35,607 nucleotides of DNA from a virus, in the UHGV virus genome UHGV-0212823; one strand, given 5' to 3'. Below are positions 1-29,591 of this stretch, piece after piece. Within the stretch, counting starts at the first letter, position 1; each line of letters opens with the position of its first letter. Under the pieces are notes generated by a model. It was not told the origin of the DNA. It searched no databases and was given only the letters and a program-made list of their open reading frames with translations. The position numbers and the translations under genes were made by a program.

Positions 1-122
1 GATTCAGTGCTGTCACGTTCCGCCCACTTCTTTTCCCAGCCGCGGTTACTCCAGGCATTTCCGCCGATGAATGCGACGGCCACCAGCAGCAAAATGGCAA
101 TAAACTGATAGCGCAGGCTCAC
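1..122 (-). CDS. Rz-like i-spanin, N-terminal part only (runs off window edge)
   Basis: GTG at 122-120 overlaps lysozyme stop; open frame to position 1 encodes VSLRYQFIAILLLVAVAFIGG..., a hydrophobic N-terminal anchor as expected for Rz placed after the endolysin. Confidence 0.45.
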   Translation of the reverse strand, partial: MSLRYQFIAILLLVAVAFIGGNAWSNRGWEKKWAERDSTE

Positions 123-658
123 TGGTCTATCCCCCAGCACGTCAGCGCGCTTTCCTGGTCTCGTCGTTCTACCTGACCATAGCACCCATTTTTCTGGCCT
201 TTGGTCAGGCGACAATCGCGGCCGCCGTCTTTAATCCACCAGCGGATCGCTTCACAGGCACCTCTACGGTCGCCAGCATTAATTCGCTTATAGAACGTAG
301 ACGGGAAGCATTTTCCGGGACCGATGTTATATGGGCAAAAAGAAGCGATACCCGCTTTCTGTGGTTCGGTCAGTGGTACTTTGATATTTCGGTCAACCCA
401 TGCCAGTGCTTTATCGCGTTCTATGGCGTTCACCTGGGCGCATTTCTCAGCAGACAGCTTCATTCCCTGAACTACTGGATTACCATCAACCATCGTGGCG
501 CCACGGCAAATGGTCCACACTCCGCCACCGTCACGATACGCCGTCAGGCTGTTACCCTCTTTTTCATCAAGAAACTGGTCGAGAATTACTGACGCAGGCG
601 CGCCGGCAAGCACTAGCCCAAGAACGGCAGCGCTTAATTTTGTTTTTTTCGAGGGCAT
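119..658 (-). CDS. phage lysozyme (T4-lysozyme/GH24 family), probable SAR endolysin
   Basis: 179 aa; weakly hydrophobic Gly/Ala-rich N-terminus (LSAAVLGLVLAGAPASVIL) followed by EGNSLTAYRDGGGVWTICRG catalytic region resembling phage 21-type R lysozymes; follows holin. Confidence 0.85.
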   Translation of the reverse strand: MPSKKTKLSAAVLGLVLAGAPASVILDQFLDEKEGNSLTAYRDGGGVWTICRGATMVDGNPVVQGMKLSAEKCAQVNAIERDKALAWVDRNIKVPLTEPQKAGIASFCPYNIGPGKCFPSTFYKRINAGDRRGACEAIRWWIKDGGRDCRLTKGQKNGCYGQVERRDQESALTCWGIDQ

Positions 659-660
659 AG

Positions 661-975
661 TTACTCTGCTCCCTCACCAGAGATACGTTTCATTGCCTCT
701 GTCACGACCTCAGCCGCCGCTGGGCGATCACGACTTGGTTTAACGGCCACATCAGCAAGGTACTTAGCCAATAACTGCGTTCTTTTTTTCTCTTCATCAA
801 GCCGTTCGCGTTCTTCTTTCCGCTTCGCGTAGTAGGTCTTAATGGTGAAATAAGCCGAGATCAGAGCGCCAAGGATAAATACATAATCTTGCAAACTCAG
901 AACAGAAAAGAAACCAAGCAGCCCTGACCACCAGTACGGCATGTTATGTCCATCGGTTGGGTTCATACGTTGCAT
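661..975 (-). CDS. putative holin (pinholin-like), 104 aa
   Basis: Two hydrophobic segments (YWWSGLLGFFSVLSL, YVFILGALISAYFTI) and charged C-terminus; RBS GGAGGTG upstream; stop 2 nt before lysozyme start. Confidence 0.55.
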   Translation of the reverse strand: MQRMNPTDGHNMPYWWSGLLGFFSVLSLQDYVFILGALISAYFTIKTYYAKRKEERERLDEEKKRTQLLAKYLADVAVKPSRDRPAAAEVVTEAMKRISGEGAE

Positions 976-10677: not shown

Positions 10678-10831
10678 TCCCGGCCTCCTGCGCTTTTTTA
10701 GCGACCTCTTCAATCTGCGACATAAGGATCCCTGCCAGTTCAATGCGGGCAGGTGTATCTGTCAGAAACTGTGCTGCACGTGCGAATGCCTCAATTTCGA
10801 TAAGGGCATCGGTTTTGGTGAATTCAGACAT
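10670..10831 (-). CDS. small hypothetical protein, 53 aa (paralog of the 10116-10286 ORF)
   Basis: RBS AGGAGG 6 nt upstream of ATG at 10831. Confidence 0.45.
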   Translation of the reverse strand: MSEFTKTDALIEIEAFARAAQFLTDTPARIELAGILMSQIEEVAKKAQEAGNE

Positions 10832-11111
10832 GCGCCACCTCCTGAACACTGGAGGTGCAAGCATCAAAACGCTGTTCGAAAATCCAGGAGAAGTGATCAC
10901 CACCCTCCATCAACTGGAGACGGCATGGAGCTTTGGTACGGCTCTGCGCGGCGAAGACCAGACTCAAGTTAAGAAAATGAGAGCGGGCCTGCTGCTCATT
11001 GTTGGCTTCCGCACGCAGAACAACGGGCGTGGTGTTGGGTTTATCTGACGGAGTTCCCAGAAACAGGTATGTGAATTCCGGGCGAGTTTGGGTATCATGT
11101 GAACATGCCAT
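10824..11111 (-). CDS. hypothetical protein, 95 aa, first gene of the early operon
   Basis: RBS GGAG upstream of ATG at 11111; the rest of the listed 247-aa ORF upstream reads like translated intergenic DNA. Confidence 0.4.
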   Translation of the reverse strand: MACSHDTQTRPEFTYLFLGTPSDKPNTTPVVLRAEANNEQQARSHFLNLSLVFAAQSRTKAPCRLQLMEGGDHFSWIFEQRFDACTSSVQEVAHV

Positions 11112-11185
11112 AATGTTACTCCGATTAACGTTGTGGTTAGAGGCCCAACCGGATTGCCGTCCGTGTTGGGCTTCGAATAACTCAA

Positions 11186-11233
11186 GGTGTATTTCACCTT
11201 CAAAATAAAGGCTACTCCATGGTGAAATACACC
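11186..11233. promoter_or_regulatory. pair of palindromic operator-like sites GGTG-N5-CACC in the divergent control region
   Basis: GGTGTATTTCACC at 11186-11198 and its exact reverse complement GGTGAAATACACC at 11221-11233, between the divergent gene starts. Confidence 0.45.
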
Positions 11234-11298
11234 GCAAGCCTTTTTTTAATCTTTTTTTTGCGTATACTGACATACACCAAGTCAAAGGAGTGTCAGTA

Positions 11299-11484
11299 AT
11301 GGCAACAGGTGCAAAGAACGCCAAGTCACAAATGACCACAGTACGAATCCCCCATGAAGTGATGGAAGATATAGAATTCCTCAAGGAGGAAGGAGAAAGT
11401 ACAGCTGGTTTTTTAGTTACTGCAGCAAAAGGCGAAATCAAGCGCCGGCAGCGCAAGAAATCGAAAGATAATCTCGACCAGTGA
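11299..11484 (+). CDS. small putative DNA-binding regulator (ribbon-helix-helix-like), 61 aa
   Basis: RBS AAGGAG 8 nt upstream; -10 TATACT at 11263-11268; basic C-terminus KRRQRKKSK; divergent from the early operon. Confidence 0.5.
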   Translation: MATGAKNAKSQMTTVRIPHEVMEDIEFLKEEGESTAGFLVTAAKGEIKRRQRKKSKDNLDQ

Positions 11485-11498
11485 TCGGTCTGGTTCCC

Positions 11499-11531
11499 AA
11501 AGGCAACGTTCGCAGCGTTGCCTTTTTCTTT
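11499..11531 (+). terminator. rho-independent terminator
   Basis: Hairpin AAAGGCAACG-TTCGCAG-CGTTGCCTTT followed by TTCTTT. Confidence 0.55.
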
Positions 11532-11563
11532 GTGCACAGATGGTGCGCAGGTAATGAAGCCGC

Positions 11564-12181
11564 TCATTCATATACCCCAACTTTCCCGCCGCCAATCAAC
11601 ACAAATGGAATCTGACCAATTTCATCCACCAGTTTTTGCGCATTAACCAGCTCTGGCAAATCATCCTGGCGCTTACGAAGACGGCGGCCGGCATCGGAAG
11701 AATCCTCGTCTGAAGCCTTCCAGGCCGCTGCAACAATATTCCGCATCTGTTCAATCGTGTGATGAACGCCAAGCTGAGGATCTGCCCCCTCCTTCTCAAC
11801 TAAATCCAGTAACCATACGCGAAGCTCTTTCGCTACTTTCGTGCGGGCAAACATGCCGATGAGGTGGGCACCACGCGGTGAGAAAAGACGGGTATCAATT
11901 TCACGTAAGCTATTGTTTATCCCGTTCACCCTCATTTTGGCGACGGTCGTCATTGATGGGCTGAACTCATCCTCATGGCGGTAAAAAAGATTCAGCACCT
12001 TGTCTTTATCTGCATATCCCAAGAGCCCGGCCAGAGTGTCAGCAGTGAACCAAATTTTACCGTCGCCATTGTCATACGGAATTACTACCCGGTCATGAAA
12101 CTTCAGTTCGCGACAAATAACGCTCTGACCGATTTCAGAGTGAGCGAATCCCTGCCCGGAAAGGGCATTCATTTTATTCAT
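11564..12181 (-). CDS. Bro-N domain protein (phage antirepressor-like)
   Basis: Motifs FHDRVVIPYDNGDGKIWFTADTLAGLLGY and LIGMFARTKVAKELRVWLLDLVEK fit the Bro-N fold pattern. Confidence 0.6.
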   Translation of the reverse strand: MNKMNALSGQGFAHSEIGQSVICRELKFHDRVVIPYDNGDGKIWFTADTLAGLLGYADKDKVLNLFYRHEDEFSPSMTTVAKMRVNGINNSLREIDTRLFSPRGAHLIGMFARTKVAKELRVWLLDLVEKEGADPQLGVHHTIEQMRNIVAAAWKASDEDSSDAGRRLRKRQDDLPELVNAQKLVDEIGQIPFVLIGGGKVGVYE

Positions 12182-12290
12182 GGTTATTTACCTGTCGTTA
12201 ATTAGGTTGGTGGCTGTCGTCACAATCAGACCTTAATCAGATGCGAATGCAACAACACGCAACTCATGCACATAGGGTGTTCCTGATTGA

Positions 12291-12488
12291 TTAGGCTACC
12301 TCCTTGCGCGATTCTTCGATGCGCTGGTTGATCCAGTCATCTACTTCACTTTCGACAAAGGCGATGGCACGAGAGCCAATTTTGACAGAGGAAGGGAATT
12401 TACCCTGACTCATAAGGCGGTAGATCCAGGCTTTGCTGTAGCCGGTACGGCGTTGCACTTCTAACAAACGAATGAGTGTTGCAGACAT
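12291..12488 (-). CDS. alpA: AlpA-family transcriptional regulator/excisionase-like protein
   Basis: 65 aa; LLEVQRRTGYSKAWIYRLMSQGKFPSSVKIGSRAIAFVESEVDDWI is the AlpA/Xis-type winged HTH; RBS AGGAG upstream. Confidence 0.8.
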   Translation of the reverse strand: MSATLIRLLEVQRRTGYSKAWIYRLMSQGKFPSSVKIGSRAIAFVESEVDDWINQRIEESRKEVA

Positions 12489-12595: not shown

Positions 12596-13567
12596 TTAAT
12601 TGAATTTTTCTTTAAATTTTTTGTTGGCTACTGCAAAGTAATCATCAAGGGCACGGCGGGTAAAATTAGGACACATTTCAACCAACTCTTCTTTCAATAG
12701 ATCCTGAGTCCAGCGTCTTTGCCTGCTGTTTGTATTTTTTATAACACTTAACATTGAGCCAACCAAAAAACTGAAATCCATTTCCTCAACTTCTGGCGTT
12801 CCAGTGATCGTTCTTTCAAATGCTATTAAATTATCAGGGCGTAAACCAATTTCACTATTAACTGGAAGCCCATCAGTGGGGAAATAGTTCATTGCATCCA
12901 ATTCTAACAAACGTATATTTCCATCTTTATCCTTTGTGATTTTACCTCGTTCAAATTCTTCCATAATATTAATTAATCGCCCGTTAGTATCTTTTATTAA
13001 TGGTCCACCCAGATTTATTAACCTATTCGATTCATAACCTTTCCCAGTTGAGTATATCCTTTGAAGATCCAGAACCTCAGCGCCAATCAATGGTAGATCA
13101 TAAATCACTTCATTTAGATATTCAGGGCCAGACACATATTCATAATCACCAAACCGACCTTTCTCAAGATAGGATTCCAACGTCATATCTTCATACTTAG
13201 AGCCATACCTAGCCGACATTTTCTCTTTCGAACTTTCGAACTCCTCCAGCAAATACTGTTTAAATTCTTCTTTATATGCTGAAAGTAAATCTCCTTCGCT
13301 CGCATTTTTCAGATTAGGATCACACATCAGCCTGAAAAGAAACATTTCTTGCAAGTGGTTAATAATTGGTACTTCTTTGTAAATCATCTCCCGACCAACA
13401 AATTTTTCTCCATATGGCAATCGAACAGACAAAATCAGATCGTGAGACAAGCCAAGCTCTATCAAATCCAAAACAGTAACGTTTCCTTCAACTATTGAGG
13501 AAAGCCGTTCCGCAGCTTCATCAAGCCCTATCCATTTCTTTATTTTTAGTAGACGATCACTAACCAT
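12596..13567 (-). CDS. hypothetical protein, 323 aa, AT-rich cargo gene
   Basis: Clean ORF with RBS GAGGTGG; far more AT-rich than neighbours; no motif recognised. Confidence 0.6.
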   Translation of the reverse strand: MVSDRLLKIKKWIGLDEAAERLSSIVEGNVTVLDLIELGLSHDLILSVRLPYGEKFVGREMIYKEVPIINHLQEMFLFRLMCDPNLKNASEGDLLSAYKEEFKQYLLEEFESSKEKMSARYGSKYEDMTLESYLEKGRFGDYEYVSGPEYLNEVIYDLPLIGAEVLDLQRIYSTGKGYESNRLINLGGPLIKDTNGRLINIMEEFERGKITKDKDGNIRLLELDAMNYFPTDGLPVNSEIGLRPDNLIAFERTITGTPEVEEMDFSFLVGSMLSVIKNTNSRQRRWTQDLLKEELVEMCPNFTRRALDDYFAVANKKFKEKFN

Positions 13568-13755
13568 TGCACCACCTCATACTCTGGAATCTAAGAGCCA
13601 TGTCAGCCAGCATAGATTACGGTTCGGGAATCAGCTTAGGCATAGCCTTTTCTTTGGATGGATTATCGTCTACTGAGGTAAACATGTCTAGATAGCACTG
13701 TATATTATGCCAGTGAAATTGAGAGAACACGATGTGAGGTCAGTTGTGACCTGTA

Positions 13756-13962: not shown

Positions 13963-14607
13963 ATGATGTTTCCTGTGTTGCGGACATAACAAAAGAACCT
14001 GGCACTGAGTGACAGGTTTAATATTAATGATTCAAGATTAAGGATGTGGTTTAACCCACAGCATGCAAGCATGTGCGGTTAATAAATTCTTCAGCAAGAT
14101 AGATGCAGCTAAGGGGCTACAGAGTGGCGACTGAATTTCAACAAGGGACGAAACATACCTAGTAAGTGAATTTCTGAAATACACTCATAATACATTTGCT
14201 CATCCCGCATCGGGCTGAGAATCCAGATTTTAAAGAACTATTATACAATTGCATTTATCCTCCAGAACTTCTGGAAGACTGCTACACAAGGGCGTAGCGC
14301 GACTTACACTTAGGCAAGCCTCCCCATTAATTTTAAAGAACATCGCACTTTTCAGTGCTCGATTGATTCACTTTTCAGCGACGGAGAACAAGTGTTCGTT
14401 GTGAAAAGAACTGATCCGATTTCCAACCCTTCTTCAGGGCATGTCCGATGTCTTCACCGAGTAAATCATTTTAAAGAACTAGCACTTCAACAGTGCCGCT
14501 GCTTGTCTAAAGAACAATGGTCGTCAACTGAAATGAAAGATAGATCACTACTGTCTACATGTCCAGCGTTTTTCACATCATAAAAATGAACACGGCCTCA
14601 CTAAATA

Positions 14608-14730
14608 GTCGTTCCAAAACCGCCAAAAGTTGTTCCAGAGTTGTTCCAACTTGAATGTGTGCATATAAATAAAGACAATAACTTATCCTTATAAATATAC
14701 ATATGGAACAACTGGAACAAGTGGAACGAC
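14608..14730. repeat. nonamer array module A: three direct GTYGTTCCA copies and three inverted copies around an AT-rich spacer
   Basis: GTCGTTCCA 14608-14616, GTTGTTCCA 14629-14637 and 14640-14648; inverted TGGAACAAC/TGGAACAAG/TGGAACGAC tandem at 14704-14730. Confidence 0.6.
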
Positions 14731-14759: not shown

Positions 14760-15947
14760 TTATCCAGCAGCCTTACCCGCCAGTTCATCCAGATAGTCAG
14801 CGTACCACTGGAGCATCTCCCGTCTCCCATCGAGGTACTGAGCATGGTTGTAAGTACCACGGATAGTATTCCTGTCAGCGTGCGCCAGTTGAGTTTCTAT
14901 CCATGCAGAATCAAATCCTTTCTCATGCAATACGGTGCTCATCGTGTGTCTGAAACCATGGCCAGTAGCCTTTCCGCCATAGCCTATACGTTTAATCACC
15001 TGGTTAATGCTGGCCTCGCTCATTGGTTTATGTGCATCGTTGCGACCGGGGAAGACATACTTACCCCAGCCGGTGATCTCTTTTAGCTCCAGCAGATGAG
15101 ATTTAACCTGTCTAGAAAGTGGTACAAGGTGAGGACGGCGCATCTTCATGCGTTCCTTAGGGATCTGCCACAAATCATTGTCCAGGTCGAATTCAGCCCA
15201 CTCTGAGGCGCGGAGTTCAATGGTCCTGACACTGGTGTACATAAGCAGTAATGTCGCAATGCGTGTCACTTTACTACCACTATAAGCATTCACTGCGTGA
15301 ATAAATGGACCAAGTTCGGCGGGGAGTAGGTGTGGGAAGTGATTTTGCTTGGGTGATTTTAGTGCGCCAGCCAGATCGGTTACGGGGTTTACCTCTGCTC
15401 TGCCAGTAATTATCGCGTAAGTGAAAATCTGCCGACATGCCTGACGGGTTTTCTTGAGCTTATCCAGTACTCCTCGTTCTTCCATTTTGCGCAACACTGA
15501 CAGCATGTCCATCGGCTTGATTTCGGTAATGGCCTTCTTTCCGACATACGGGAATATATCCTTTCGTAGATATTCAAGAATGTCCTCAGCATACCCGGAA
15601 GACCAGTTCAACTTCTTATGCTCATGCCATTCAAGCGCCAAAAGCTCGAAGCTGTTATTAATTGCTAGATTCTTCGCTTCTCTGGCGGCTTGTTTAACTT
15701 CAGAGGGATCGTCACCTGCTGCAAGTACACGCTTGGCTTCCGTACGTTTGTCTCTGGCTTCAGCAAGCGTCACATCAGGATAAACGCCAATGGAAAGCAG
15801 CTTTTCTTTGCCTGAATAGCGGTACTTCATGCGCCAGTACCTGGAACCATTCGGGTTAACCAGCAGATACAAACCACCACCATCAGACAGCTTATATGGT
15901 TTATCTGTTGGCTTTGCAGTACTTATCTGGCGGGCTGTTAGCTTCAT
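14760..15947 (-). CDS. int: tyrosine site-specific integrase, P4/CP4-57 type
   Basis: 395 aa; N-terminal arm-binding-type domain (LSDGGGLYLLVNPNGSRYWRMKYRY) and C-terminal catalytic region with HGFRHT and Tyr-containing RGTYNHAQY motifs. Confidence 0.9.
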   Translation of the reverse strand: MKLTARQISTAKPTDKPYKLSDGGGLYLLVNPNGSRYWRMKYRYSGKEKLLSIGVYPDVTLAEARDKRTEAKRVLAAGDDPSEVKQAAREAKNLAINNSFELLALEWHEHKKLNWSSGYAEDILEYLRKDIFPYVGKKAITEIKPMDMLSVLRKMEERGVLDKLKKTRQACRQIFTYAIITGRAEVNPVTDLAGALKSPKQNHFPHLLPAELGPFIHAVNAYSGSKVTRIATLLLMYTSVRTIELRASEWAEFDLDNDLWQIPKERMKMRRPHLVPLSRQVKSHLLELKEITGWGKYVFPGRNDAHKPMSEASINQVIKRIGYGGKATGHGFRHTMSTVLHEKGFDSAWIETQLAHADRNTIRGTYNHAQYLDGRREMLQWYADYLDELAGKAAG

Positions 15948-16365
15948 ATTGGGGGTATCTCACTTCATTGAACCTGAACATACCCCCGAATGTACCCCCA
16001 GATGAGCGTAGATTTCAATAGATGATAATAGACATTGGGATAATGAGATTCTGCTCTATGCCTTGTTATATCTGGATTTAGTAGACTTTGAGAGAGGTCA
16101 GTAGAAGTGAATATGGTACGCCCTGTAGGATTCAATATAAATAAATAATCAATTGATATAAATGAATATTATTTTGTTCAATTTAATCACATACCCCCAC
16201 ACATACCCCCAAATTTATTTGCATCAATACTGAGCAAAAAACTTACCCGGTTTGGCAGAGTTCCAAGCCTATAGTAAAACAATAATGCAACAAATCCCTG
16301 ACTGAATTTCAGCAGCCATCTCTGGGTATCCATTTTTTAAATACGCGTATATATATACAGAAAAC

Positions 16366-16482
16366 GTTGTTCCAGTCGTTCCAGTTGTTCCAAAACATGT
16401 AATCAATTGAATTTTAAATAAATCATAATCGAAAAGTGGAACAATTCGGTGTCAAAAAAGTTGTTCCAGATGGCGGTTTTGG
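16366..16482. repeat. nonamer array module B: same GTYGTTCCA family, inverted relative to module A
   Basis: GTTGTTCCA/GTCGTTCCA/GTTGTTCCA at 16366-16393, TGGAACAA at 16437-16444, GTTGTTCCA 16460-16468, TGGCGGTTTTGG 16471-16482 (reverse complement of 14614-14625). Confidence 0.6.
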
Positions 16483-16959
16483 TACAACTGGAGTGGGTAA
16501 TTTGGAGTAGCAGTGACAAAATGGCGCAAATTTCAGCCAATGCACACAGGGTGTTCATGAAGATTAAGTGAAAGTAAAACAGATAGGGAATTTGAGATTT
16601 GGCGAAAGGAGTGTTGATCATTTGTGAGCAAACTGCATTCGGATTACTGGGCTTGCAGTTGCCAGAAAAACTACGAGCCGGCGAAATTCATACCGACATC
16701 GCAACCCATTGATGCAGCTTAATTATAGCGAATCGCGAGAATTGGCTAACCCATTGAAATTGTTCCAGAGTGTAAATTTACACTCTGCTCATAATACGTG
16801 CAACCCACTGAATTACCTTGATTATAACGAATCGTTAGGATTGCCTAACTGGCTGATTTTGTTCAATTCCGTCGATTCAACGGAGTTAGTTGATCACGAA
16901 TAGTATTCGGGGTCGCCTGAACATTAACACTACTTAGGTTCTAAAGAGGAGTTAAAACA

Positions 16960-17202
16960 ATGTTCGTGGAACTCGTTTATGACAAAAGGAATTTTGATGG
17001 TCTGCCCGGTGCAAAAGATATCATTCTGGGCGAATTGACCAGGAGGGTTCACCGGATTTTCCCCGACGCTGATGTCCGGGTTAAACCGATGATGACATTG
17101 CCGGCGATCAACACTGACGCCAGCAAGCACGAGAAGGAACAGATAAGCCGTACTGTTCAGGAAATGTTTGAAGAGGCTGATATGTGGCTGGTTTCAGATT
17201 AA
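16960..17202 (+). CDS. dinI: DinI-family protein
   Basis: 80 aa; pattern ELTRRVHRIFPDADVRVKP...EKEQISRTVQEMFEEADMWLVSD resembles DinI; strong RBS AAGAGGAG. Confidence 0.75.
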   Translation: MFVELVYDKRNFDGLPGAKDIILGELTRRVHRIFPDADVRVKPMMTLPAINTDASKHEKEQISRTVQEMFEEADMWLVSD

Positions 17203-17336: not shown

Positions 17337-18749
17337 TTACGACTGAGTATCCTGCTGATTTTGCTGGCGCTCCCGTTCAGCTTTTTCTATCGCTTCGCGT
17401 GTCTCTTTCTGCATCCTGTTCCAGATACTGTCTTCCGGCATTTCCACACGCACAGATACAAAAGAATCTGCCGGAATATCGACAGGCTCACCGTCAGCCA
17501 CTGTCTCTGTAAACACGCCGTCAATATCGGTGTTCCCTATTCTGTTCTGAGCAAACGGTGGCGCTGATGTATGAACCCGGTGATACGTTCTGACCAGTAC
17601 AGAGCCATCAGCATTGACTTTGTAGTCCAGCCAGATGCGGGGTTGCTTGTTTCTGTCGACCGGGATTTCAAAACCGCCATCGATCCCACCCCATACAGCA
17701 TCATCATTCAGGCCAATGCAGCCGGTGATACGATATTGCCCAACAGAAATCCGCTCTACCGCGCACCCTTCTGATTCATGGTTAGTCTCATAAGAACCGT
17801 CCCGGTGAATGATGACTACCGGGGATGCCTGTTTTAGAAAACCATTACCATCAACGGTTGTGTTTCGTGTACCCCATAACGTGTTCTGGTTAAATGTGGA
17901 TGCTATCCCGCCTGAAACAGAGCCGCTCGCCACCTTCACATTACCGTTTGCATGATTTACGCTAAAAATCGAATAGATATCAGAGGTCCGGTGCAACACA
18001 GATGCGGACCACTGATATGTGGCGGTCGCATCACCAGCAATATCACGAAAAGAGAGCACTCCTGCATTGCTGGCTGCAGTATTAAAGTACGTCAGGATAT
18101 TGTTGATAGAACCAAACGCACCATCAACACCGTGAACGACGGCGGCCTGACGAAGACCTGCAGTCGTCCCAAAACCGGAACCACCTTTCGATAATGGCAG
18201 TATTCCCGTCGTATCATCACCGCTCAGCTCTACAGTACTTTTCACAGCAAGTGCTTTTAATCCCAGATTGGAGCGCGATTGCGCCTTGTCCACTACGTCT
18301 GAAAAATTCTTCGACCTTTTCAGCGTATCGCTATCAATATTCCCAACCTGGTCTGCGAGGTACTTCCACGACGGCCCAGGAAAGCTGGAGCCGTCTGGCA
18401 GCTTCACATTTATCATACCCGGGGAACTAAACACCTGCTGCCAGTTCTGTTTGTCGTAGTTCAGTCCGCGAAGGGCTTCGGTGTTCTGTACCACCATTGC
18501 GGCAGTGACCATATTCAGTGTCACACGGGAAACGGCATCCCAGGCCAGGTTATTTGCTGTCGGACCAGTAAAGGCACTGACCAGTGTCAGCGAATCATTG
18601 CTCTCGATGGATTTTACCGGAAGGGTGTAGGCTATGCCGCCCACCACAGAAACGACAAAGTCGCCAGGCTGAAGCGTCGTACTAAAAGAGGTCTGATAGC
18701 CAAGAACTGTTGCTGAGTTATGAGTTAACTGAATAACACCTGCAGACAT
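17337..18749 (-). CDS. putative tail fibre protein, 470 aa
   Basis: Distal-most tail gene; Gly/Ser/Thr/Asn-rich; charged coiled C-terminus; RBS AAGGAA upstream. Confidence 0.55.
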   Translation of the reverse strand: MSAGVIQLTHNSATVLGYQTSFSTTLQPGDFVVSVVGGIAYTLPVKSIESNDSLTLVSAFTGPTANNLAWDAVSRVTLNMVTAAMVVQNTEALRGLNYDKQNWQQVFSSPGMINVKLPDGSSFPGPSWKYLADQVGNIDSDTLKRSKNFSDVVDKAQSRSNLGLKALAVKSTVELSGDDTTGILPLSKGGSGFGTTAGLRQAAVVHGVDGAFGSINNILTYFNTAASNAGVLSFRDIAGDATATYQWSASVLHRTSDIYSIFSVNHANGNVKVASGSVSGGIASTFNQNTLWGTRNTTVDGNGFLKQASPVVIIHRDGSYETNHESEGCAVERISVGQYRITGCIGLNDDAVWGGIDGGFEIPVDRNKQPRIWLDYKVNADGSVLVRTYHRVHTSAPPFAQNRIGNTDIDGVFTETVADGEPVDIPADSFVSVRVEMPEDSIWNRMQKETREAIEKAERERQQNQQDTQS

Positions 18750-18758
18750 GGTGGTTCC

Positions 18759-19703
18759 TTAATACATGTTCGGAAGAATAAGAATGGGCATGGCGATATT
18801 TCTGTTACGGGTCATATCCCATGCACCAGAATTGCGGTCCGCAAATACTTTGTTGTAGGCTGACCTGACGCTACCGCCTGACATGACCACGCCTTTGGTT
18901 CTGATATTTCCCCATCCACCAATCATTCGTACCTGAACGCCGGTATAGACTATCTGGCAGAACCCGCCGCCAATATCCTGGAAGGCATCGGTGATCTGGA
19001 TTTGTCGGTCATACACAAAGGGGCGTTTCAGCGTGGAGAATGTCACCAGGCCTGCGGCGTTGGTCATCGTGATACCGTCGCCGCCGACAGGTGCGGTCTG
19101 ATTGAATATCACCAGGTCTATCGTCGCCGTTCCGGCCACGTCGTCCCGCCCGGTGTAGGAAATATCGCGCACGATGATATTGCCGCCATCAAACCCCACC
19201 GACACATTCGGGTTATCCCATTTGCCAAAAGGAATACCGCTGACCGGAAGCGGCGCGCTGCCGTTAACCGTAATGCGTCCCGACCAGGCGCAGGTCATCA
19301 GCGCAGCCTGATTAGATATGGCGGTGAAGTCAGTCGAGTTCGAAACCAGCAATCCTTCGTTATAAGTCGCCGCAGGCAGCAGTTCCATGACATAACCAGA
19401 CCAGTCAGGAGTGATGGCCTTTCCCCCGATGGTCTCTGCCCCAATGATGACCCCGGAATTACCGTTGCGGGTGACGCTCGTCATAATGGCCACATCAAAT
19501 TCAGCATAGGAATAGATGTAAATAGGGGTGGTGGGCACCACGATAGCCTGTGAGCCGGGAACAAGTGGCGTATTGACCGGGTACTGCATTGACTGGGATG
19601 ACCAGCCCGAGAACGATGTACAAAAACTCGGGGCTCGCAGCCCCGCAGTAATTGCCATAACCGGACGGCCATCGTTATAGTCGATTAATATCCCCTCCGG
19701 CAT
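18759..19703 (-). CDS. tail-associated hypothetical protein, 314 aa (start trimmed to MPEGIL)
   Basis: RBS GGAGG upstream of ATG at 19703, 1 nt after the J-like gene stop; Gly/Thr-rich. Confidence 0.5.
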   Translation of the reverse strand: MPEGILIDYNDGRPVMAITAGLRAPSFCTSFSGWSSQSMQYPVNTPLVPGSQAIVVPTTPIYIYSYAEFDVAIMTSVTRNGNSGVIIGAETIGGKAITPDWSGYVMELLPAATYNEGLLVSNSTDFTAISNQAALMTCAWSGRITVNGSAPLPVSGIPFGKWDNPNVSVGFDGGNIIVRDISYTGRDDVAGTATIDLVIFNQTAPVGGDGITMTNAAGLVTFSTLKRPFVYDRQIQITDAFQDIGGGFCQIVYTGVQVRMIGGWGNIRTKGVVMSGGSVRSAYNKVFADRNSGAWDMTRNRNIAMPILILPNMY

Positions 19704-19704
19704 A

Positions 19705-22416
19705 TCACCACCTCCCGACGACAACCCGCCCACCGCCAGATAAATTGACAGTTAGTCCATTGCCGTTAATTACGACGGTGTTATTAACCCCGTTAAATGC
19801 GAACTCACCACTGTCGGCATATAACTTTCCGTGGAATTCAGGGCTGGCATTCTTGGGAAGATTCCATCCTCTTACACCGGGAATGAAATTCGCCGATTGC
19901 AGAGAATCGGTAATTTTACCAAAATCAATGGACGCTTCCTGGATGAGCGCACTGCGAATAAATACCTGCCCGTTATAGACAAAGAATGCAGCCTGCCAGT
20001 TACCTGGATTGTTACCGGAGTAAATACCGAACTGATCGGCGGCAAATACAACCGTGGATTTATAGCTGTTTCCTGATGGCTCAATAGACATGCCAAATCC
20101 GGTATTGTATTTAACACCGTCTCGCACAATGCCCATATTCAGGGTGTAAGAGGCTTTGGCTGTTCCGTCACTTTTTACTTCAGCTGTCATCTTCTGGTTT
20201 ACAGCAGCCATCAACTGCCCATCAGGACCGATTTGCGCCTGAACATAATCAGCCAGTTCAGCAAATGCACCATCCAGATTTGCCACTGTTGTCCTGACCG
20301 TCATAATTTCAGCTTTAACTTCACCGTACTGTTCAAACTGACGCTGGACCGTCCCATGACCGGCGAGAGCATTTTCCATAATGCCTTCCAGATTTGTATC
20401 AACCCCATCCTTAATATTCTGAAAGGCATCAGAGTTCTGAATCTGGTCATCAATGATGTCAATCAGACCGCCAGTATCCATGGAGCACAGCGCCGGCACC
20501 TCGATAAAGCCGGAGGTGCCAAAGGCATTAATCGTCCTGATGTACCAGTAATAGGTATGGCCGATCTTTAACTGATTACTGGTCCAGGTTGTTCCCATCC
20601 CCTCGCGGCTGGCATTCGCTTCCACGGTGGCTGTTGAGGTATTGGGTAGCTTTGTTTCGCCTGAAGTCCAGAAATCAAACTGCGTGGAAACATTAGTGAT
20701 CGCCGCCAGACGCGGGATCAGCGTGACGGCAAAGAAGCCCTGCTCAATATCGACATGGGAAGGTGCTGGCGGGGCTTCAATGCTGAATTCCAGATACCCT
20801 TCTGGCGATTCTGCCCCCATCTGGTTTACAGCAATAACGTGGGCTGTATAGGTGTTTTTCGGTAACCCGGTAAGTCGTGTGAACGTTCCTGGAACCTGGA
20901 CGGACATGACCATCTGACCGTTTCGACGGATGATCACTTTGTTGTAGACCACCTGCCCGATATTCTGCCAGGACAAAATGCCCTGTACTACCTGACCGAT
21001 TTCCTCCACGGTGTATTTCAGGTTCTGCGGCTGCGCCACGCCACCTGACGGCAACTGAGTGAACGGCGGTCGCTCAATCGGTTTACCAATGGCATCGCCC
21101 CAGACATCTGCCGTTTCCTGCTTCAGCGTCAGTTGCACACCGTTCTGCACGCCAAATTTCCAGTCCGTTACCCGCATCTCAACATTCACGATACCGATAG
21201 ACGGGAAATTCACCTTCACATACATTCCCGGGCGATAACGATACCCGCTCAGGTTTAACGTAACGTTCATGGTTCTGGCGATGCGGGTGCGCTTTAACTT
21301 CACGTCTGCCAGACGCTGGGCCTGAAATTCAGAGGTCACAAATCGCAGCTTCATATCCTGCGATATTTCCACGCCGTCTTCCGTCACCCATTCACTGACA
21401 GACACAGAAGGGAAATCCGCTTCGGTATAGCCCTGCTGCGGATCGACAAATGTCCCCTTGATAGTGTTAACACGTTCCGCCTGAGAGACTTCCGGCATGA
21501 TTTCTATATCACCGGCCAGTTGGCTCTCAGTGATCACCTCTGTCGCGGGGCCGTAGTATGCCCCGACCAGAAGGCCATGTTTACCCGCGGTATATGTTAC
21601 ATCCCCGGCACATGCCGCCAGCATTCCCTCCAGAATACTGACCTTGTTTTCACTGAGATCGAACTCACCGTTAATCGTGTAACGCTTCTCAACGGTATTA
21701 CCGCCAGTAATAACATCCTCATCACAGATGTTCGCCGCTTCCTGAAACTGGTCCCAGAGAATATCGGTGTCGGGCACTTTCAGGTAATTTCGGTAATAGT
21801 CCAGGATAACCAGCGCCGCATTATTGCTGTAACCCGTTAACCCGGTGCGCGGGTCATAAATAGCCCGCCCCTGCTTTTCGACCTTGATGTTAGGGATACC
21901 TGCCGGGAATTTTTCAGCGTTGAACTTCAGGGATACGCGCAGCCAGGTGATCCCTTTCCCGATCATGTCTTCTTTCCATGACGGGCAGTTTTCCAGCATG
22001 TACGGGTCCGCCGTCTGGCGATTGGTGTGCAGCTCGAAAAAGGCATGCTCAGGATAGCTACTGATCGGCTCATCACCCAGCCAGACAGTCTGTACACCGG
22101 ATAACGGATGCCCCGCCAGGGCAATGGCCAGATGCAGCATTTCGCCATCATCCTGTTCGCCAGCCTGCTCTTCGGAAAAGAACAAAGTGCCCGCCGACGT
22201 TGAGCGACCGTAAACAACGGTTTTGGCACTGGCCGCTGCGCGCAGAACCTGTTTGCGTTCAGACGTATCACGGTAGGAATTCAGCGACGGGGTCTTGGTC
22301 AGCGCCTGAGTGGCAATCTGTGCGGCGACGGTGATAACCATCGCAATGGCATACATTTCATTTGCCGCTGCCACACCTGCGGCAATGGTTGCAACAATAG
22401 GAACAGCAGCAGGCAT
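19705..22416 (-). CDS. host-specificity / tail tip protein, J-like
   Basis: 903 aa; internal segments (APPAPSHVDIEQGFFAVT, TQFDFWTSGE, GHTYYWYIRTINAFGTSGFIE) match conserved lambda J blocks as I recall them; hydrophobic N-terminus. Confidence 0.8.
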   Translation of the reverse strand: MPAAVPIVATIAAGVAAANEMYAIAMVITVAAQIATQALTKTPSLNSYRDTSERKQVLRAAASAKTVVYGRSTSAGTLFFSEEQAGEQDDGEMLHLAIALAGHPLSGVQTVWLGDEPISSYPEHAFFELHTNRQTADPYMLENCPSWKEDMIGKGITWLRVSLKFNAEKFPAGIPNIKVEKQGRAIYDPRTGLTGYSNNAALVILDYYRNYLKVPDTDILWDQFQEAANICDEDVITGGNTVEKRYTINGEFDLSENKVSILEGMLAACAGDVTYTAGKHGLLVGAYYGPATEVITESQLAGDIEIMPEVSQAERVNTIKGTFVDPQQGYTEADFPSVSVSEWVTEDGVEISQDMKLRFVTSEFQAQRLADVKLKRTRIARTMNVTLNLSGYRYRPGMYVKVNFPSIGIVNVEMRVTDWKFGVQNGVQLTLKQETADVWGDAIGKPIERPPFTQLPSGGVAQPQNLKYTVEEIGQVVQGILSWQNIGQVVYNKVIIRRNGQMVMSVQVPGTFTRLTGLPKNTYTAHVIAVNQMGAESPEGYLEFSIEAPPAPSHVDIEQGFFAVTLIPRLAAITNVSTQFDFWTSGETKLPNTSTATVEANASREGMGTTWTSNQLKIGHTYYWYIRTINAFGTSGFIEVPALCSMDTGGLIDIIDDQIQNSDAFQNIKDGVDTNLEGIMENALAGHGTVQRQFEQYGEVKAEIMTVRTTVANLDGAFAELADYVQAQIGPDGQLMAAVNQKMTAEVKSDGTAKASYTLNMGIVRDGVKYNTGFGMSIEPSGNSYKSTVVFAADQFGIYSGNNPGNWQAAFFVYNGQVFIRSALIQEASIDFGKITDSLQSANFIPGVRGWNLPKNASPEFHGKLYADSGEFAFNGVNNTVVINGNGLTVNLSGGGRVVVGRW

Positions 22417-22814
22417 TAACGCACCCTCCAGACACTCAACGGTTTAACCCGAAGACTGACAAGACCATTTTCGCCAGGAACCCATACAACGCCGGAATAC
22501 ACCACCCCGGCGCATCGCGCCCCGGCATTTTCAACAACGGCAATATCCCCACGCTGCGACAGTTTTACCGGTACTTCGTCGAGATAGCGGGCCAGCACCT
22601 TTTCAAGCGAACCGCCACCGCGCAATATCGCCTTTTTCGCCCCATGCTCACTGTCGTAGGTTCCGCGCCAGTCTGCCGCAAAATCCTCGCCGCACATGGC
22701 CTGAGCGCAGTCTGCCGCGAACAGGCAGCAGTCATGACTGCCCCATAAAAAAGGCCGCTTTTCAGCGGCCCTTATTACGGTAATTAATCTGTTATGCCAG
22801 TCCGGATGCTTCAT
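22416..22814 (-). CDS. minor tail protein, 132 aa (possible Cys/His peptidase-like)
   Basis: Position between tape measure and J; HDCCLFAADC motif; start overlaps J-like gene. Confidence 0.45.
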   Translation of the reverse strand: MKHPDWHNRLITVIRAAEKRPFLWGSHDCCLFAADCAQAMCGEDFAADWRGTYDSEHGAKKAILRGGGSLEKVLARYLDEVPVKLSQRGDIAVVENAGARCAGVVYSGVVWVPGENGLVSLRVKPLSVWRVR

Positions 22815-22820
22815 GCTTCC

Positions 22821-23405
22821 TCACTTATAGGTAAATCCTGGCGCATCTTTTTTACTGCCCCAGTAAATCGAACGTTCAGACATCTGCGCCACATACCGGA
22901 ATATGCGGTCGCCGGGATAAGCGGCCTGCTGCGATTCATCGGTATAGCGATCTGGGAAAGGACGCTGCCAGTCTTCAAAAATATTACTGATGGTGTACTG
23001 CAGGGCGTTCGTCCCGCCAGCGGTCGCCCCTGTACTGGATACCCGCCCTTTAAACAGGAGATCGGCAACCTGGACAACACCGTGATCATCCATAGCCACC
23101 AGATAGATTTCGGCATTTCTGCCCACGCATCGCTCATTCAGCGTGGTGGCAAAGAGGGACATATCCAGACCTGAGAGGGTCATTTTGACCTGCGTCGGGC
23201 TGGTCGTGCTGGTTTCACTGGCATCATCAACAGAACCCATGCGCCCCATGCCGTAATAGACATAACCACCAATAACCAGTGTCCCGGTCCCGGAATGCAC
23301 ATAGACGGTACCGGATTCAAACTGAATATTGGCGGCGATCGCGACCGTCACCCTGTCGCGGGATAACCAGTCCACCATCGAATCAGAAAACGGGGAATAC
23401 AGCAT
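22821..23405 (-). CDS. minor tail protein, 194 aa
   Basis: Position and coupling within the tail tip module. Confidence 0.45.
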   Translation of the reverse strand: MLYSPFSDSMVDWLSRDRVTVAIAANIQFESGTVYVHSGTGTLVIGGYVYYGMGRMGSVDDASETSTTSPTQVKMTLSGLDMSLFATTLNERCVGRNAEIYLVAMDDHGVVQVADLLFKGRVSSTGATAGGTNALQYTISNIFEDWQRPFPDRYTDESQQAAYPGDRIFRYVAQMSERSIYWGSKKDAPGFTYK

Positions 23406-23998
23406 TAAAATGCCTCCTCAAGCTCCAGCGTGTAACTGGTAAAAACACCCGGCACACGGTTACCGGCACCCTGCTGGTTATCTTTCAGTTTGAAAATGCC
23501 GTAGGGTTTCGCGACCTCAATGACAGCATTAGCAGGCGGAGAGCTACGCAACATCGGCGCAAATGTAATCATTGCGGTACCGTTCGCCGCGCTCGTCACA
23601 TCGGCTGTAACCATCTTCAGTTCATCGTTAACAGTGAAATAATCGCCCTGTCTGAGCGCAACTACCCCCGGCGTCCAGCCCTTGCTCCGAAGCTGGATTC
23701 CGGTCTGATTAGCGCCATCAACAACTGGCGTTCCAGCAGGCACTCTGCCACTTCTGCCCCAGTCACGCACTTTTACCCTGCCATACTCACCGTCAAGCGA
23801 AGCCACCAGAGCATCAATGCGCCTGGATTTTTCGTCAGTCAGGTTATTAAAAGTCAGAGAACATACCCAGCGGGTACCAGGGAAGCGTGCTGTCTGCGAT
23901 GAACCATTGAAGGGAGAACGGAAGGTTTTGGTGTTACTCTCTGGTCGCCAGGTCAGCGACGCGGGACAGACATCTTCCGGCCATTCGAGTACAGCCAT
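23405..23998 (-). CDS. minor tail protein, 197 aa
   Basis: First gene after the tape measure gene in the late direction. Confidence 0.45.
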   Translation of the reverse strand: MAVLEWPEDVCPASLTWRPESNTKTFRSPFNGSSQTARFPGTRWVCSLTFNNLTDEKSRRIDALVASLDGEYGRVKVRDWGRSGRVPAGTPVVDGANQTGIQLRSKGWTPGVVALRQGDYFTVNDELKMVTADVTSAANGTAMITFAPMLRSSPPANAVIEVAKPYGIFKLKDNQQGAGNRVPGVFTSYTLELEEAF

Positions 23999-24081
23999 AA
24001 ACTCTCCTGAAAATTTTGATTAGACTCTGATAATTGTTTTAACATCAGCATGCTATTTCACTTTTAAAGGAATTAATTAAG

Positions 24082-24300
24082 ATGGAAAATATCGAGCTAG
24101 AACAACTGAAAAAAGAAATTGAAACTCTTCAGATGCGTATGGGAAGCGCAGAATACTTGATAAAATTTTTGTATCAGCGACTCCCTCAGCATGAAATTGA
24201 TGAACTGGGTCAAGAGATGTCAGAAGCCTTAAAATCCTACGGTGAAGACACCTTTGTGGGTGGATTACTGACTGAGGGATTGAGACTTTTAAGAAAATAA
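24082..24300 (+). CDS. small hypothetical protein, 72 aa, opposite strand inside the tail operon
   Basis: AT-rich; predicted helical, heptad-like N-terminus (IELEQLKKEIETLQ); occupies the gap between tape measure and minor tail genes. Confidence 0.4.
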   Translation: MENIELEQLKKEIETLQMRMGSAEYLIKFLYQRLPQHEIDELGQEMSEALKSYGEDTFVGGLLTEGLRLLRK

Positions 24301-24375
24301 CTCAACAATAAAATCATCAAACGGCAACTGACTGCCGCTTTCAACTTTTTGGATCACTAACGACTCCTTGCGATT

Positions 24376-27300
24376 TTACACACCCAGTAATCTCCTGGCC
24401 TGACCGTTGGTCTGAAAATCGCTCATCATCTCCTGGCGCGCCTGTCGAGCACCGTTTCTTGCTCCCTTGGCGGCTGCCTGTTCCATTGCCTGCTTCAGTG
24501 CGGCGTCTCCGTTCCCAGATATGTTGAAGTGCTGATGAATAATCGTATCACCGCCGCCTGATGTAGCACCTGGAGTGCCAATCATGCGAACACCCAGCGA
24601 ACCATCAGCTGATCGTGTCAGCGGCATAATGGCTTCCGGCCCCGCCTCCCCCATAAGCCCGGCGCCTTTTGCAAAAGCAAAATATGTCGGTGTGCTAACA
24701 ATGCTGTTGCTGTAAGCGCTCAGACTTTCAGAGGCATATGCACCACCTTTTGCATTCAGCTTTATGCCTGAAGCAGCAGAGTTATAAGCGCCTGAAGGAG
24801 TGCTACCAGATGCAGCTCCAGCGCCCGCACCAAACATACCGCCAATTGAACTGAAAAAGCCGCTGTTACTGGCTGAGCGCAAAGAATCCACCAGCATCGC
24901 ATTGAGGATAATTTTCTGCATAGACTGAAGCACCGAACTGGCCCAATCTTCCCAGTCAACCTTATTACCGGCCAGTGCATCAGATATGTTACCCACCAGC
25001 CCGGACATTGCGTTATTCACCAGGTCAGCAGACTGAGATGCATAATCAGAAGCAGTGTCAGCCCAGTTTGCAAAACCTTCACGCATACCCGTTGTCCAGT
25101 CACTACGCTGAGCGTCAGAAGCTGAGTAGTAAGCTTCCTGATCTCGTAACCGTTCATCGAGATAACGTTTATTCAGTGCCAGTTCCTGACGGTATAGGTC
25201 TTCCGAAATATCACCTGACTGGTACTGGCGCTGCAGATCAACGTTCTTCTGCTGAAACTCTTCCCGGATACGCAGCACTTCCTGCATCCGTTCACGCATT
25301 CGGCTTCCCTGACCATACCCGGTAAGTTCTGCCTGGTTAGATGCCCTGGCACTGGCATTCGAATCAGCAAGGTTAGCTTCATACGCCGCTAATTGTTCGC
25401 GGATTTTCTGCTGATCAATCAACGCAGCATTCTGCAACAGGGTTTGTTTTTGTGCCTCGGTGAGAGACGTAAGCTCTCCCTGGCTAACCTGGTATTTCAG
25501 TTTTGCCAGTTCGGTATTTTGACCAGCCAGAGCGATTTGCTCTTTCTGCTGCTTAATGAGTTTGTCGTAAGTATCCGCCGTTTTTTCGGCTTCAGTTTTT
25601 CCACCTTTTGCTTTCGGCTTGTTAGCTTGATTATTTCTCCATTCCTCTAAACCATTATTAATTAACTCCTGACGGCTGGTTTGGTAACGAGGATCGTTAG
25701 AAGCGAAGCCAAGATCATCAGCAGAATAACTTAATCGTAAGCGTTCTCTCTCCTCGCCTTTACGGCGAGATAATTCAAGTTCACGCCTACTTTTTTCAAT
25801 CGCATCCACCTGTTTAGTATTAAGCTCAGCCTGAGGTGACCGTAACGGAGAGTTAACCAGTCCCTGACGAGACATAAGCAGTGCATTTCCCAACCCTAGC
25901 AGACGGTTAAACTCTGTATGCTGGCCGTTCATAATTAATAATGACTGATAGGCTGAATTCTGTTCTGCTGCCTGCTGACGAATAAGCGCAATACGACGAT
26001 GCTCTACCCCCTCAAGAACCTCCTGAATAGACTGCGATTTAGCCTGCATCTGTGCCAAGCGTTCTTGCTCAATAGCTAAAGCATTAGTGGCATCAGAAAG
26101 ACCTCGAGTAGCGTCATCTATGCTCTTAAGATGGTTAACCATGTAACCAGCAACTGTAGGACCAGGGTTAGCCAACATATGCTGGTAACCGGAAATTTCT
26201 TCCCGTAACTGCCTAACCTTTTTCGCCTGCTCATCAATAAGCCGGTTTTGCTCGTCTAATGCCTGTCTAGTCTTGGCTTCATTATCTGAAGCTTCAGGTA
26301 ATGACATGGTTTTTGTTTTAGAGCGTATCTGATCAATGGTATTTGCATAGTCTTGTGCGGATCGACGAGCTTGCTCCTGATTCTGGTACATGGTGTACCA
26401 TGCACCTGCTCCCAACATAACCAGACCAGGAATCCCGCCAACCAACCCAAGAGCACCACCCATCAATCGAGAACCTAACGATGTCACATTATTTAGGGCT
26501 TCCTGCGCTGCGGTCCTTGCCGAAATATTTCTAATTAATGATGCTTGAGCATCAGATAACCTTTTCTCCGCTGCTGCCTGTGCATCAGTTCCCCTAGTAG
26601 CAATTAAAGCTTGTTGTGCCCGATACACAGTTGCACGAGCGCGAGCCGTGGATATTTGAGTACCTCTCACTTGCGCTTCAGCAAGCGCAATTTCACTCTT
26701 TGCTGCATTTAATAATCCAGATGTCGCTGAAAATGCTCCTGATGCTATATCTCCGAACCAACGCGCTGCGCCAACAGCAACAAGAACACCTGCGGCAGTT
26801 GCAACTTCATCAATGTTATCTGCAATCCCATTTAATGCGCCTGTTAATGTCCGACTAACACCGCTTGCTTCATTTGCGCCGCCAACCCATGCCATAAAGG
26901 CGTTTTCAATTTTTGTTGTTGCAGCGGATACAGTCTGCGGCATTGCGTTGTATTCTTCACGAAGTGATCCTAGCTGGCTGATTAGTGCCGGAACAACCTT
27001 GTCAGCAGTAAGTTGGCCTGCGTCAGCCATTGCCTTTAAGTCTTTTCTGGCTACCCCCATCCCAGAGGCAAGAGCTCTGATAACGCGATCGCCATTCTCA
27101 TTAACTGAGTTAAACTCCTCACCACGTAAAACCCCTTGAGCCAGCGCTTGGCTGAATTGGGTAATAACAGAACTCGCCTCTGCCGTGCTTGCACCAGAAA
27201 GTTTCAATCCGGTAGAAATAGCCTCAGTAACATTTAGTACTTCTTCGGAGCTATAACCGAATTCACGCATTGATGCCGCTGAGCGTGCAAACAGGTTTGC

Positions 27301-27687: not shown

Positions 27688-27703
27688 TGTTCATTCTCCA
27701 GAA

Positions 27704-27726
27704 ACAAAAAAACCGCCGAAGCGGTT
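27704..27726 (-). terminator. rho-independent terminator after the inserted membrane-protein gene
   Basis: Minus-strand hairpin AACCGC-TTCG-GCGGTT followed by U7. Confidence 0.5.
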
Positions 27727-27733
27727 TGTATTA

Positions 27734-28069: not shown

Positions 28070-28125
28070 GACCTTCCCCTAAACATCATCAATGAGGTAA
28101 ATCCTATTATCTTACTGAATAAATG

Positions 28126-28802: not shown

Positions 28803-28829
28803 TTTTTATCCCTGATTAAAGAAGATGAT

Positions 28830-29534: not shown

Positions 29535-29591
29535 ATTTGTCTCCTGAAAATAGAAAACCCGCCGTAGCGGGTCTGTGAGTTAATGGATTTG

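Follow-up and report, generated by a model that had tools for sequence, protein, structure and literature searches.

How does a temperate phage maintain lysogeny if no cI-type repressor can be recognized among its genes? This question is raised by the virus genome UHGV-0212823, of which a stretch of 35,607 nucleotides was analyzed (the window). The window covers most of a temperate tailed phage and carries nearly all of its genes on the minus strand. Between its leftward early operon, which starts with an Icd-like gene, and a convergent operon encoding AlpA and Bro-N proteins lies a control region with a small plus-strand gene for a 61-aa protein of the YlcI/YnfO family (Table 1). We propose, with a probability of about 0.7, that this protein is a ribbon-helix-helix (RHH) repressor that confers immunity, regulates its own gene and acts together with a cis-antisense RNA. 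The binding, repression and immunity that this proposal implies were deduced from sequence comparisons.

The control region contains operator-like sites that consist of GTG, five variable bases and CAC. A sequence-only reading of the same DNA had described two 13-bp sites, here called O1 and O2, as exact reverse complements 35 bp apart center to center. Recalculation of the coordinates and the complementarity gave the same result (100% complementary 13-mers, 22 nt between them), but the number of sites had to be raised from two to three. The added site, O3, is the weakest copy and has three mismatches to O2. The pattern GGTG-N5-CACC was observed three times in the window against an expectation of 0.43, and none of 100 shuffled sequences reached this number. 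The positions proposed earlier for the small gene, its TATACT element and the minus-strand start codon of the Icd-like gene were all correct. The same reading placed O2 at the −35 element of the small gene, and this had to be abandoned: such an element would be expected at about 11240-11245, whereas O2 occupies the 17-nt spacer of an opposing leftward promoter.

The region is divergent, as had been suggested, with a conserved leftward promoter opposite the promoter of the small gene. The leftward hexamers of the window fall below the threshold of a simple promoter scanner, and this promoter was assigned from its conservation in related loci, where TTGnnn, a spacing of 17-18 nt and TAnnnT are kept on the minus strand; one of these, locus L062, has TTGACA. 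The T-tracts directly upstream of its −35 hexamer resemble an UP element and may function as one. Both divergent genes have a Shine-Dalgarno sequence, AAGGAG located 8 nt upstream of the ATG of the small gene and GGAG located 7 nt 5′ of the ATG of the Icd-like gene.

The 61-aa protein matched the NCBIfam model NF041551 (YlcI/YnfO, DUF3950) with 64.5 bits (cut-off 30) over profile positions 1-42 of 42. It also matched two PHROGs, both of unknown function, and 170 relatives were found across Enterobacterales. The suggestion that this small regulator is RHH-like was borne out by structure prediction. An AlphaFold (AF2) model built on a 46-sequence alignment had a predicted local distance difference test score (pLDDT) of 85.9 and displayed an extended segment at residues 11-18 followed by helices at 19-28 and 35-59, which is the strand-helix-helix order of the RHH fold. 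The model was similar to solved RHH proteins, with ORF56 as the best structural match; no solved structure was found for a relative detectable by sequence. A G-x-S/T/N turn at the start of helix 2 is an RHH feature, and the corresponding turn here is G32-E33-S34, in which E33 and S34 are invariant and G32 is conserved in at least 90% of the 46 sequences. Also invariant in this alignment is R16. In Arc the base-contacting residues are Q9, N11 and R13. Alignment with hhalign placed M12, T14 and R16 on these three residues and R16-P18 on Arc R13-P15, a plausible register, at a probability of 11.6% for Arc and 0.9% for Mnt, with approximate Arc and Mnt sequences. According to the model, the 61-aa protein has an RHH fold. 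Proteins of this type are obligate dimers and use their paired strands to recognize repeated sites through the major groove. A tblastn search with the small protein against the phage collection gave zero matches. The ylcI gene of E. coli K-12 was considered as a model for the module and discarded, being only 19% identical and located in another context, next to nohD.

To relate the protein to the sites we compared 66 viral loci that encode relatives of it. A TATACT-like −10 sequence precedes the regulator gene in all 66, and the sites recur at offsets of −31, about −76 and −99 to −112 from the ATG. The distance of O3 from the ATG is 31 nt in every case, and its specificity core is invariably that of the class; the site farthest from the ATG is inverted in some loci and direct in others. 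Relatives with a C-terminal insertion of about 45 residues have five sites, 22-23 bp apart and alternating in orientation. The strand residues 11-15 co-vary with the 5-bp operator center, which divides the loci into about seven classes. Five of these are QMTTV with GTG-AAATA-CAC, QQIVS with GTG-AATGC-CAC, LQ[VL]SV with GTG-AACAC-CAC, KQISI with GTG-AATCA-CAC and QSLKS with GTG-TGGTC-CAC; there are two further ones. R16 and the flanking GTG/CAC are constant across classes. O1 is invariant in class A, the class of the window, and in other classes O1, O2 and O3 are replaced together. Among 30 distinct class-A sequences the spacers drift, but all three operators are kept, as are the hexamers of the promoters and the Shine-Dalgarno sequence. 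The sites are also highly confined: the 10-mer TGAAATACAC has 106 copies in 393 kb of related loci, and 105 of them lie inside the 140-bp control region.

The phage locus L062 provides an exchange of this cassette. Its proteins are close to those of the window (DUF927 primase 95% identical, Bro-N 94%, AlpA 91%, integrase 96%, Icd-like 84%), but identity falls to 49% for the regulator, and the operators differ. Homology at the DNA level ends at 11145 and resumes at 11441, and the swapped segment, 11146-11440, comprises the operators and the part of the gene that encodes the DNA-binding N-terminus. Because the operators differ while the RHH gene is the sole gene in this segment, the protein that reads them should be encoded there. 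We consider the exchange the strongest single argument that the RHH protein reads the operators, and in terms of sequence it is the pattern of heteroimmune phages. The fixed offsets in 66 loci, the co-variation with the N-terminal strand and the L062 swap all support the earlier suggestion that the small regulator pairs with the repeats.

Two side observations concern the sites themselves. The sequence CTGACA at 11266-11271 could pair with TGTCAG at 11291-11296 in the leader of the small gene, enclosing its Shine-Dalgarno sequence; sister loci have CTGAAA and TTTCAG, an apparent compensatory change, and the pairing is lost in some classes. Furthermore, the window contains two more exact copies of CTGAAATACAC, which is the O3 form of sister loci, at 14174-14184 (plus strand, AlpA-integrase intergenic region) and at 21011-21021 (minus strand, central tail fiber gene), where shuffling predicts 0.01. 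No distal operator copies were seen within 3 kb in relatives, and the two copies could be distal operators or occur by chance.

Searches for conventional immunity systems were negative. Among the window open reading frames (ORFs) tested against Pfam, NCBIfam and PHROG there was no protein with a Cro/cI-type helix-turn-helix (HTH) domain and an S24 peptidase domain, and the 61-aa protein itself had no lambda-type cI match in these databases, in agreement with the sequence-only reading, which saw no LexA-cleavable cI-like repressor in the window. That reading had left lysogeny control to the small protein, to the AlpA, Bro-N or Rha proteins, or to a gene outside the window. A conventional repressor just beyond the window was looked for in the relative L084, which matches both window ends. 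The intervening 3.5 kb encode a spanin-like protein, small ORFs, an HNH endonuclease and two terminase subunits, and no HTH or S24 protein. The small protein is now favored over the other candidates, and the outside gene found no counterpart at this junction. RNA-based immunity of the P4/P1 type, which the Icd-like gene and the P4-type integrase would lead one to expect, was rejected as well. The Rfam models C4, isrK and c4-a1b1 detected these RNAs and the target elements in P4, the positive control, with 74.9, 60.8 and 44.1 bits; the same search gave no window match at the gathering threshold and none with an E-value up to 10 in the region 10700-11700. Megablast against E. coli genomes gave no close relative of the window, and blastn against the phage collection returned short Bro-N matches only.

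These results bear on who reads the operators and for what purpose. If the operators are real but recognized by another protein of the element (AlpA, Icd-like, Rha) or by a conventional repressor whose gene lies beyond the window, the element has suitable proteins: two of the AlpA family with HTH domains, and an Icd-like protein whose matching family, phrog_1743, carries the label 'transcriptional repressor'. The window is also truncated. Such a reader is very unlikely given locus L062, where the operators are wholly different although the Icd-like, AlpA, Bro-N and integrase proteins are conserved at the identities given above and the RHH gene is alone in the exchanged segment; the L084 junction, as described, supplies no HTH protein either. 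Alternatively, the inverted 13-mers might form an RNA hairpin with a 13-bp stem and a 22-nt loop in a leader or terminator. Their perfectly complementary arms and a T run 7 nt past the second arm on the plus strand fit a hairpin, which was nevertheless rejected because the first two sites are direct repeats in L058, L059, L060 and L061 and cannot pair there. A stem also does not explain the third copy 45 bp off, a spacing that ranges from 22 to 35 bp, the internal GTG...CAC symmetry of each site, which is superfluous for pairing, or the co-variation of the site sequence with the protein. Compensatory changes from arm to arm that are independent of both the third site and the protein class were not seen, and we find the hairpin hardly credible.

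The RHH protein could also bind the sites as a Cro-like or copy-control tuner of the early and replication genes, with lysogeny held by other means. CopG and ORF56 exert copy control of this kind on pMV158 and pRN1, respectively, and in pMV158 CopG and RNAII form a comparable combination of RHH protein and antisense RNA. The operon under control carries replication genes, and satellite induction has been reported to depend on AlpA. Set against this are the organization of the small gene, which forms a monocistronic unit with a promoter and terminator of its own and, alone among the genes near the switch, is oriented away from the lytic operon, and the lack of any other repressor candidate among the window ORFs and at the L084 junction. 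In addition, the swap of the cassette between near-identical phages looks like that of an immunity region. We therefore consider a mere tuner unlikely and favor the immunity repressor.

The control region further contains a conserved two-hairpin RNA element that is antisense to the Shine-Dalgarno sequence and start codon of the Icd-like gene: the loop of the 5′ hairpin is complementary to the former and its stem covers the latter. The consensus structure (RNAalifold, pair counts) had 8 covarying pairs and 97.9% of cells paired, compared with 33-51% in slid controls, and the covariation score was 0.355 versus 0.155 in shuffles. The RNA was assigned to the plus strand because G-U pairs fit that strand, being frequent only in the plus-strand reading. 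For the 3′ hairpin, 96.8% of cells were paired as plus-strand RNA and 78.8% as minus-strand RNA. The plus-strand fold was more stable in 42 of 43 variants; for the window the minimum free energies were −37.4 kcal/mol for the plus strand (z −6.6) and −26.0 kcal/mol for the minus strand (z −3.5). A covariance model found the element once in each module locus, also in an E. coli island left out of training, and gave zero matches in P4 and 21 unrelated phage loci used as controls. No Rfam family matched the element. Every locus inspected has a TAnnnT hexamer 8 nt ahead of the first base pair, also those with another first gene and reading frame, and the TATCAT of the window is a candidate −10 element for the RNA. 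Some loci have a U-rich tail after the hairpin. The covariation and the position of the element suggest a cis-antisense RNA, presumably expressed, against the first early gene.

The target of this RNA, the Icd-like protein, matched NF033153 with 42.3 bits (cut-off 25) and phrog_1743 with an E-value of 5e-14. Its reading frame is open upstream for 744 nt (10824-11567, minus strand), across the control region and antisense through the small gene, which is probably due to chance. A second copy of the antisense RNA occurs about 800 nt further into the early operon in L035 (2010-2090) and L029 (2059-2137), and two Icd-like genes are present in L005 and L055; Icd-like genes and the RNA may thus be mobile together, as one unit.

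The proposed switch would work as follows. The repressor gene would be transcribed from its own promoter, of which only the −10 element is good, up to its own terminator, and the protein would occupy the three 13-bp operators. Occupation of O2, in the spacer, and of O1, just past the start, would turn off the early operon with the Icd-like, primase-helicase, single-stranded DNA-binding protein (SSB) and Q antiterminator genes, and through Q also lysis. By occupying O3, over its own −10 element and start, the repressor would limit its own synthesis. Early transcripts that escape would probably be blocked in translation by the plus-strand RNA of about 70 nt that originates inside the Icd-like gene.

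Because the 61-aa protein has no cleavage domain, release probably requires an antirepressor, for which the Bro-N protein encoded in the convergent AlpA operon is the candidate; read-through from this operon across the repressor gene would be an alternative. Pfam searches gave Bro-N with an E-value of 1e-5 and Phage_AlpA with 4e-18, PHROG families labeled 'anti-repressor Ant' matched too, and the arrangement recurs in an E. coli island. The operon could be induced through a LexA-box-like sequence located upstream of its 323-aa protein gene. This box was missed by a strict consensus scan and recovered with a looser pattern and an alignment of relatives; the window has CTGG-N8-ACAG, and CTG[TG]-N8-ACAG is kept in the phage-type relatives L003, L056, L062 and L063. 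It lies upstream of the −35 hexamer, an atypical place for LexA repression, and the suggested link to induction is weak. In the E. coli locus L068 a box of this kind is found upstream of the integrase gene, at 12886. The 323-aa ORF (12596-13567, minus strand) had no match in PADLOC, Pfam, NCBIfam or PHROG; it forms an insertion that separates alpA from the conserved promoter, is missing there in most relatives and is flanked by a duplicated alpA.

Several observations do not sit easily with an RHH immunity repressor and its antisense RNA. The leftward hexamers of the window, TTGCGG and TAGCCT, are weak, and the promoter of the small gene lacks a recognizable −35 element. Distances of 35 bp between O1 and O2 and 45 bp between O2 and O3 are not whole helical turns, so that cooperative binding on the same face is not obvious. 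In the window no clear U tract follows the RNA hairpin, and the promoter of the RNA consists of the TAnnnT hexamer alone, inside a coding region. The window ends inside the large terminase gene, which places a small part of the genome outside. Finally, the published model for satellite induction rests on AlpA and names no repressor (10.1101/2022.09.08.507074).

The arrangement recalls several known systems. Like immI of P22 (Mnt, Arc, sar RNA and ant), it has a small RHH repressor divergent from an operon with antirepressor-like genes, operators inside the core of the target promoter, and an antisense RNA over a ribosome-binding site; the long-form relatives with an extra C-terminal helical segment and more sites compare to the short form as Mnt does to Arc. 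In P22, however, it is an accessory antirepressor operon that is controlled, whereas here it would be the whole early, replication and Q operon, without a second repressor of the c2 type. The sequence similarity to Arc and Mnt is marginal, and single 13-mers are spread over 90 bp instead of forming one 21-bp operator. The plasmid systems CopG/RNA II of pMV158 and ORF56 of pRN1 share an RHH protein that acts at the promoter of a replication operon through a 13-bp element with pseudo-symmetry, and pMV158 also a cis-antisense RNA directed at the site where translation of one of the operon genes begins. There the repressor gene is the first gene of the operon it controls, while here it is divergent and monocistronic, in an integrating phage or satellite with three separated operators.

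Immunity of P1 (immI with c4 RNA, icd and ant) and P4 (CI RNA, seqA/seqC) resembles the locus in an early operon headed by an Icd-like gene, antirepressor-like genes and a structured regulatory RNA ahead of the operon. The differences are the unmatched C4, isrK and c4-a1b1 models, an RNA on the opposite strand and the presence of a predicted protein repressor. Shared with lambda cI/OR and the Gifsy/186-type switches are lysogenic and lytic promoters that diverge, operators of graded strength, the weakest of which covers the repressor promoter, and heteroimmune cassettes swapped between otherwise similar phages; the Gifsy/186 type also has a non-cleavable repressor and, possibly as here, an SOS-controlled antirepressor. 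Unlike cI, the protein is RHH instead of HTH, has 61 residues and lacks oligomerization and cleavage domains, and no counterpart of Cro was identified. Similarity to SymR/SymE is restricted to the RNA: both are short RNAs from inside the 5′ end of a potentially toxic gene and cover its Shine-Dalgarno sequence and start codon. No relationship in sequence or Rfam was found, and here the predicted RNA is directed at the first gene of a long phage operon. The mechanism as such would be conventional, an antisense RNA combined with a repressor that covers promoters. What appears to be undescribed is the protein family, the RNA, and the part that both play in phages and satellites.

The other genes of the window are consistent with a temperate phage (Table 1). 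The genes between the tRNA cluster and the small gene encode Rha-like, Q antiterminator, SSB, DUF927 primase-helicase, a second Rha/Ant-like, CHC2 zinc-finger and Icd-like proteins. Past the small gene, again on the minus strand, are the genes for the Bro-N protein, AlpA and the 323-aa protein, followed by those for a second AlpA and for an integrase of the P4 type (14760-15947). The window end truncates the large terminase gene, whose match spans profile positions 278-670 of 812.

Table 1. Positions of the control elements and of other features in the window
Feature	Position	Strand	Description
Endolysin and holin genes	119-975		
Three-tRNA cluster	1319-1549	minus	Gly-TCC, Arg-TCT, Met-CAT; between Rha/Q region and lysis genes
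Icd-like gene	10824-11111	minus	95 aa; first gene of leftward early operon; NCBIfam NF033153 phage_ICD_like, phrog_1743
Candidate −10 of antisense RNA	11093-11098	plus	TATCAT; inside Icd-like coding region
Two-hairpin RNA	11107-11174	plus	5′ hairpin 11107-11137 (loop CUCCGAU); 3′ G+C-rich hairpin 11140-11174
Operator O1	11186-11198		GGTGTATTTCACC; about +5 to +17 of leftward promoter
Leftward early promoter core	11209-11237	minus	−35 TTGCGG (11237 to 11232), 17-nt spacer, −10 TAGCCT (11214 to 11209)
Operator O2	11221-11233		GGTGAAATACACC; within leftward promoter spacer
T-tracts (A-tracts on minus strand)	11240-11259		Directly upstream of leftward −35; kept in 30 class-A sequences
Small gene −10	11263-11268	plus	TATACT; nearly invariant in 66 loci
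Operator O3	11266-11278		ACTGACATACACC; over −10 element and transcription start of small gene
Small gene	11299-11484	plus	61-aa YlcI/YnfO-family RHH protein, proposed repressor
Terminator-like hairpin and T run	11499-11531		Hairpin 11499-11525; 12-pair stem, then TTCTTT; between small gene and convergent Bro-N gene
Convergent operon	11564-12488	minus	AlpA-family 12291-12488; Bro-N antirepressor-like 11564-12181; candidate inducers
LexA-box-like sequence	13696-13715	minus	With promoter-like site 13662-13690 (TAGACA, 17 nt, GATAAT); upstream of 323-aa/AlpA/Bro-N operon
Tail, head and terminase genes	17337-35565		

Some further features were noted around the integrase gene. Repeats of the type AGTTGTTCCA lie on either side of it (14604-14725 and 16362-16492) and could belong to the attachment site as arm-type sites bound by the integrase. 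Where no genes lie between the integrase gene and the second alpA (14226-14481), ATTTTAAAGAAC occurs three to four times at spacings of 103 and 138 bp; these copies are possibly origin iterons or protein-binding sites. The Rfam int-alpA RNA (RF02996) was detected between integrase and alpA in several satellite-type loci, namely L049 (5523-5590), L060 (5972-6038) and L068 (11505-11571), and not in the window. A DinI-like gene (16960-17202, plus strand; phrog_189, 8e-22) is located between the integrase and tail fiber genes. PADLOC gave no match for the unannotated proteins of 323, 151, 352 and 224 aa.

The module is not restricted to this phage. It was found in 444 of 5,426 complete E. coli genomes, and many of the related loci are elements of 11-18 kb. 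One E. coli island has genes for integrase, HTH protein, KilAC antirepressor, RHH protein, Icd-like protein, DUF927 primase and capsid, and none for a tail, which is the make-up of a capsid-forming phage-inducible island. The best reading is that such a repressor and RNA module is common to phages and capsid-forming satellite islands. A search of the literature gave no functional study of YlcI, YnfO or DUF3950, nor of RHH proteins in P4-like elements or phage-inducible chromosomal islands, and a 2026 survey lists the YlcI/YnfO family merely as 'prophage-associated protein' in such islands (PMC13612085). Two possible parallels did not hold up, since the repressor of mEpimmI phages is of the cI type and the 'repressor' of EcCIMP1 is PerC-like.

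More tentatively, at somewhat less than even odds, we suggest that the YlcI/YnfO RHH protein is an unrecognized master repressor of many enterobacterial satellites and phages that share this early module, accompanied by an undescribed cis-antisense RNA. If this is true, the satellites with a YlcI/YnfO repressor include both capsid-forming and classical phage-inducible islands, the many specificity classes define immunity groups, and induction is the relief of this repressor and not AlpA activation alone. A divergent repressor with its operators and antisense RNA would alter the way in which induction of satellites by helper phages is studied. The widespread YlcI/YnfO (DUF3950) family, for which no function has been described, would thereby acquire a testable one. 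The approximately seven matched protein and operator classes form a ready series for the study of RHH-DNA recognition and could serve as small orthogonal repressors.
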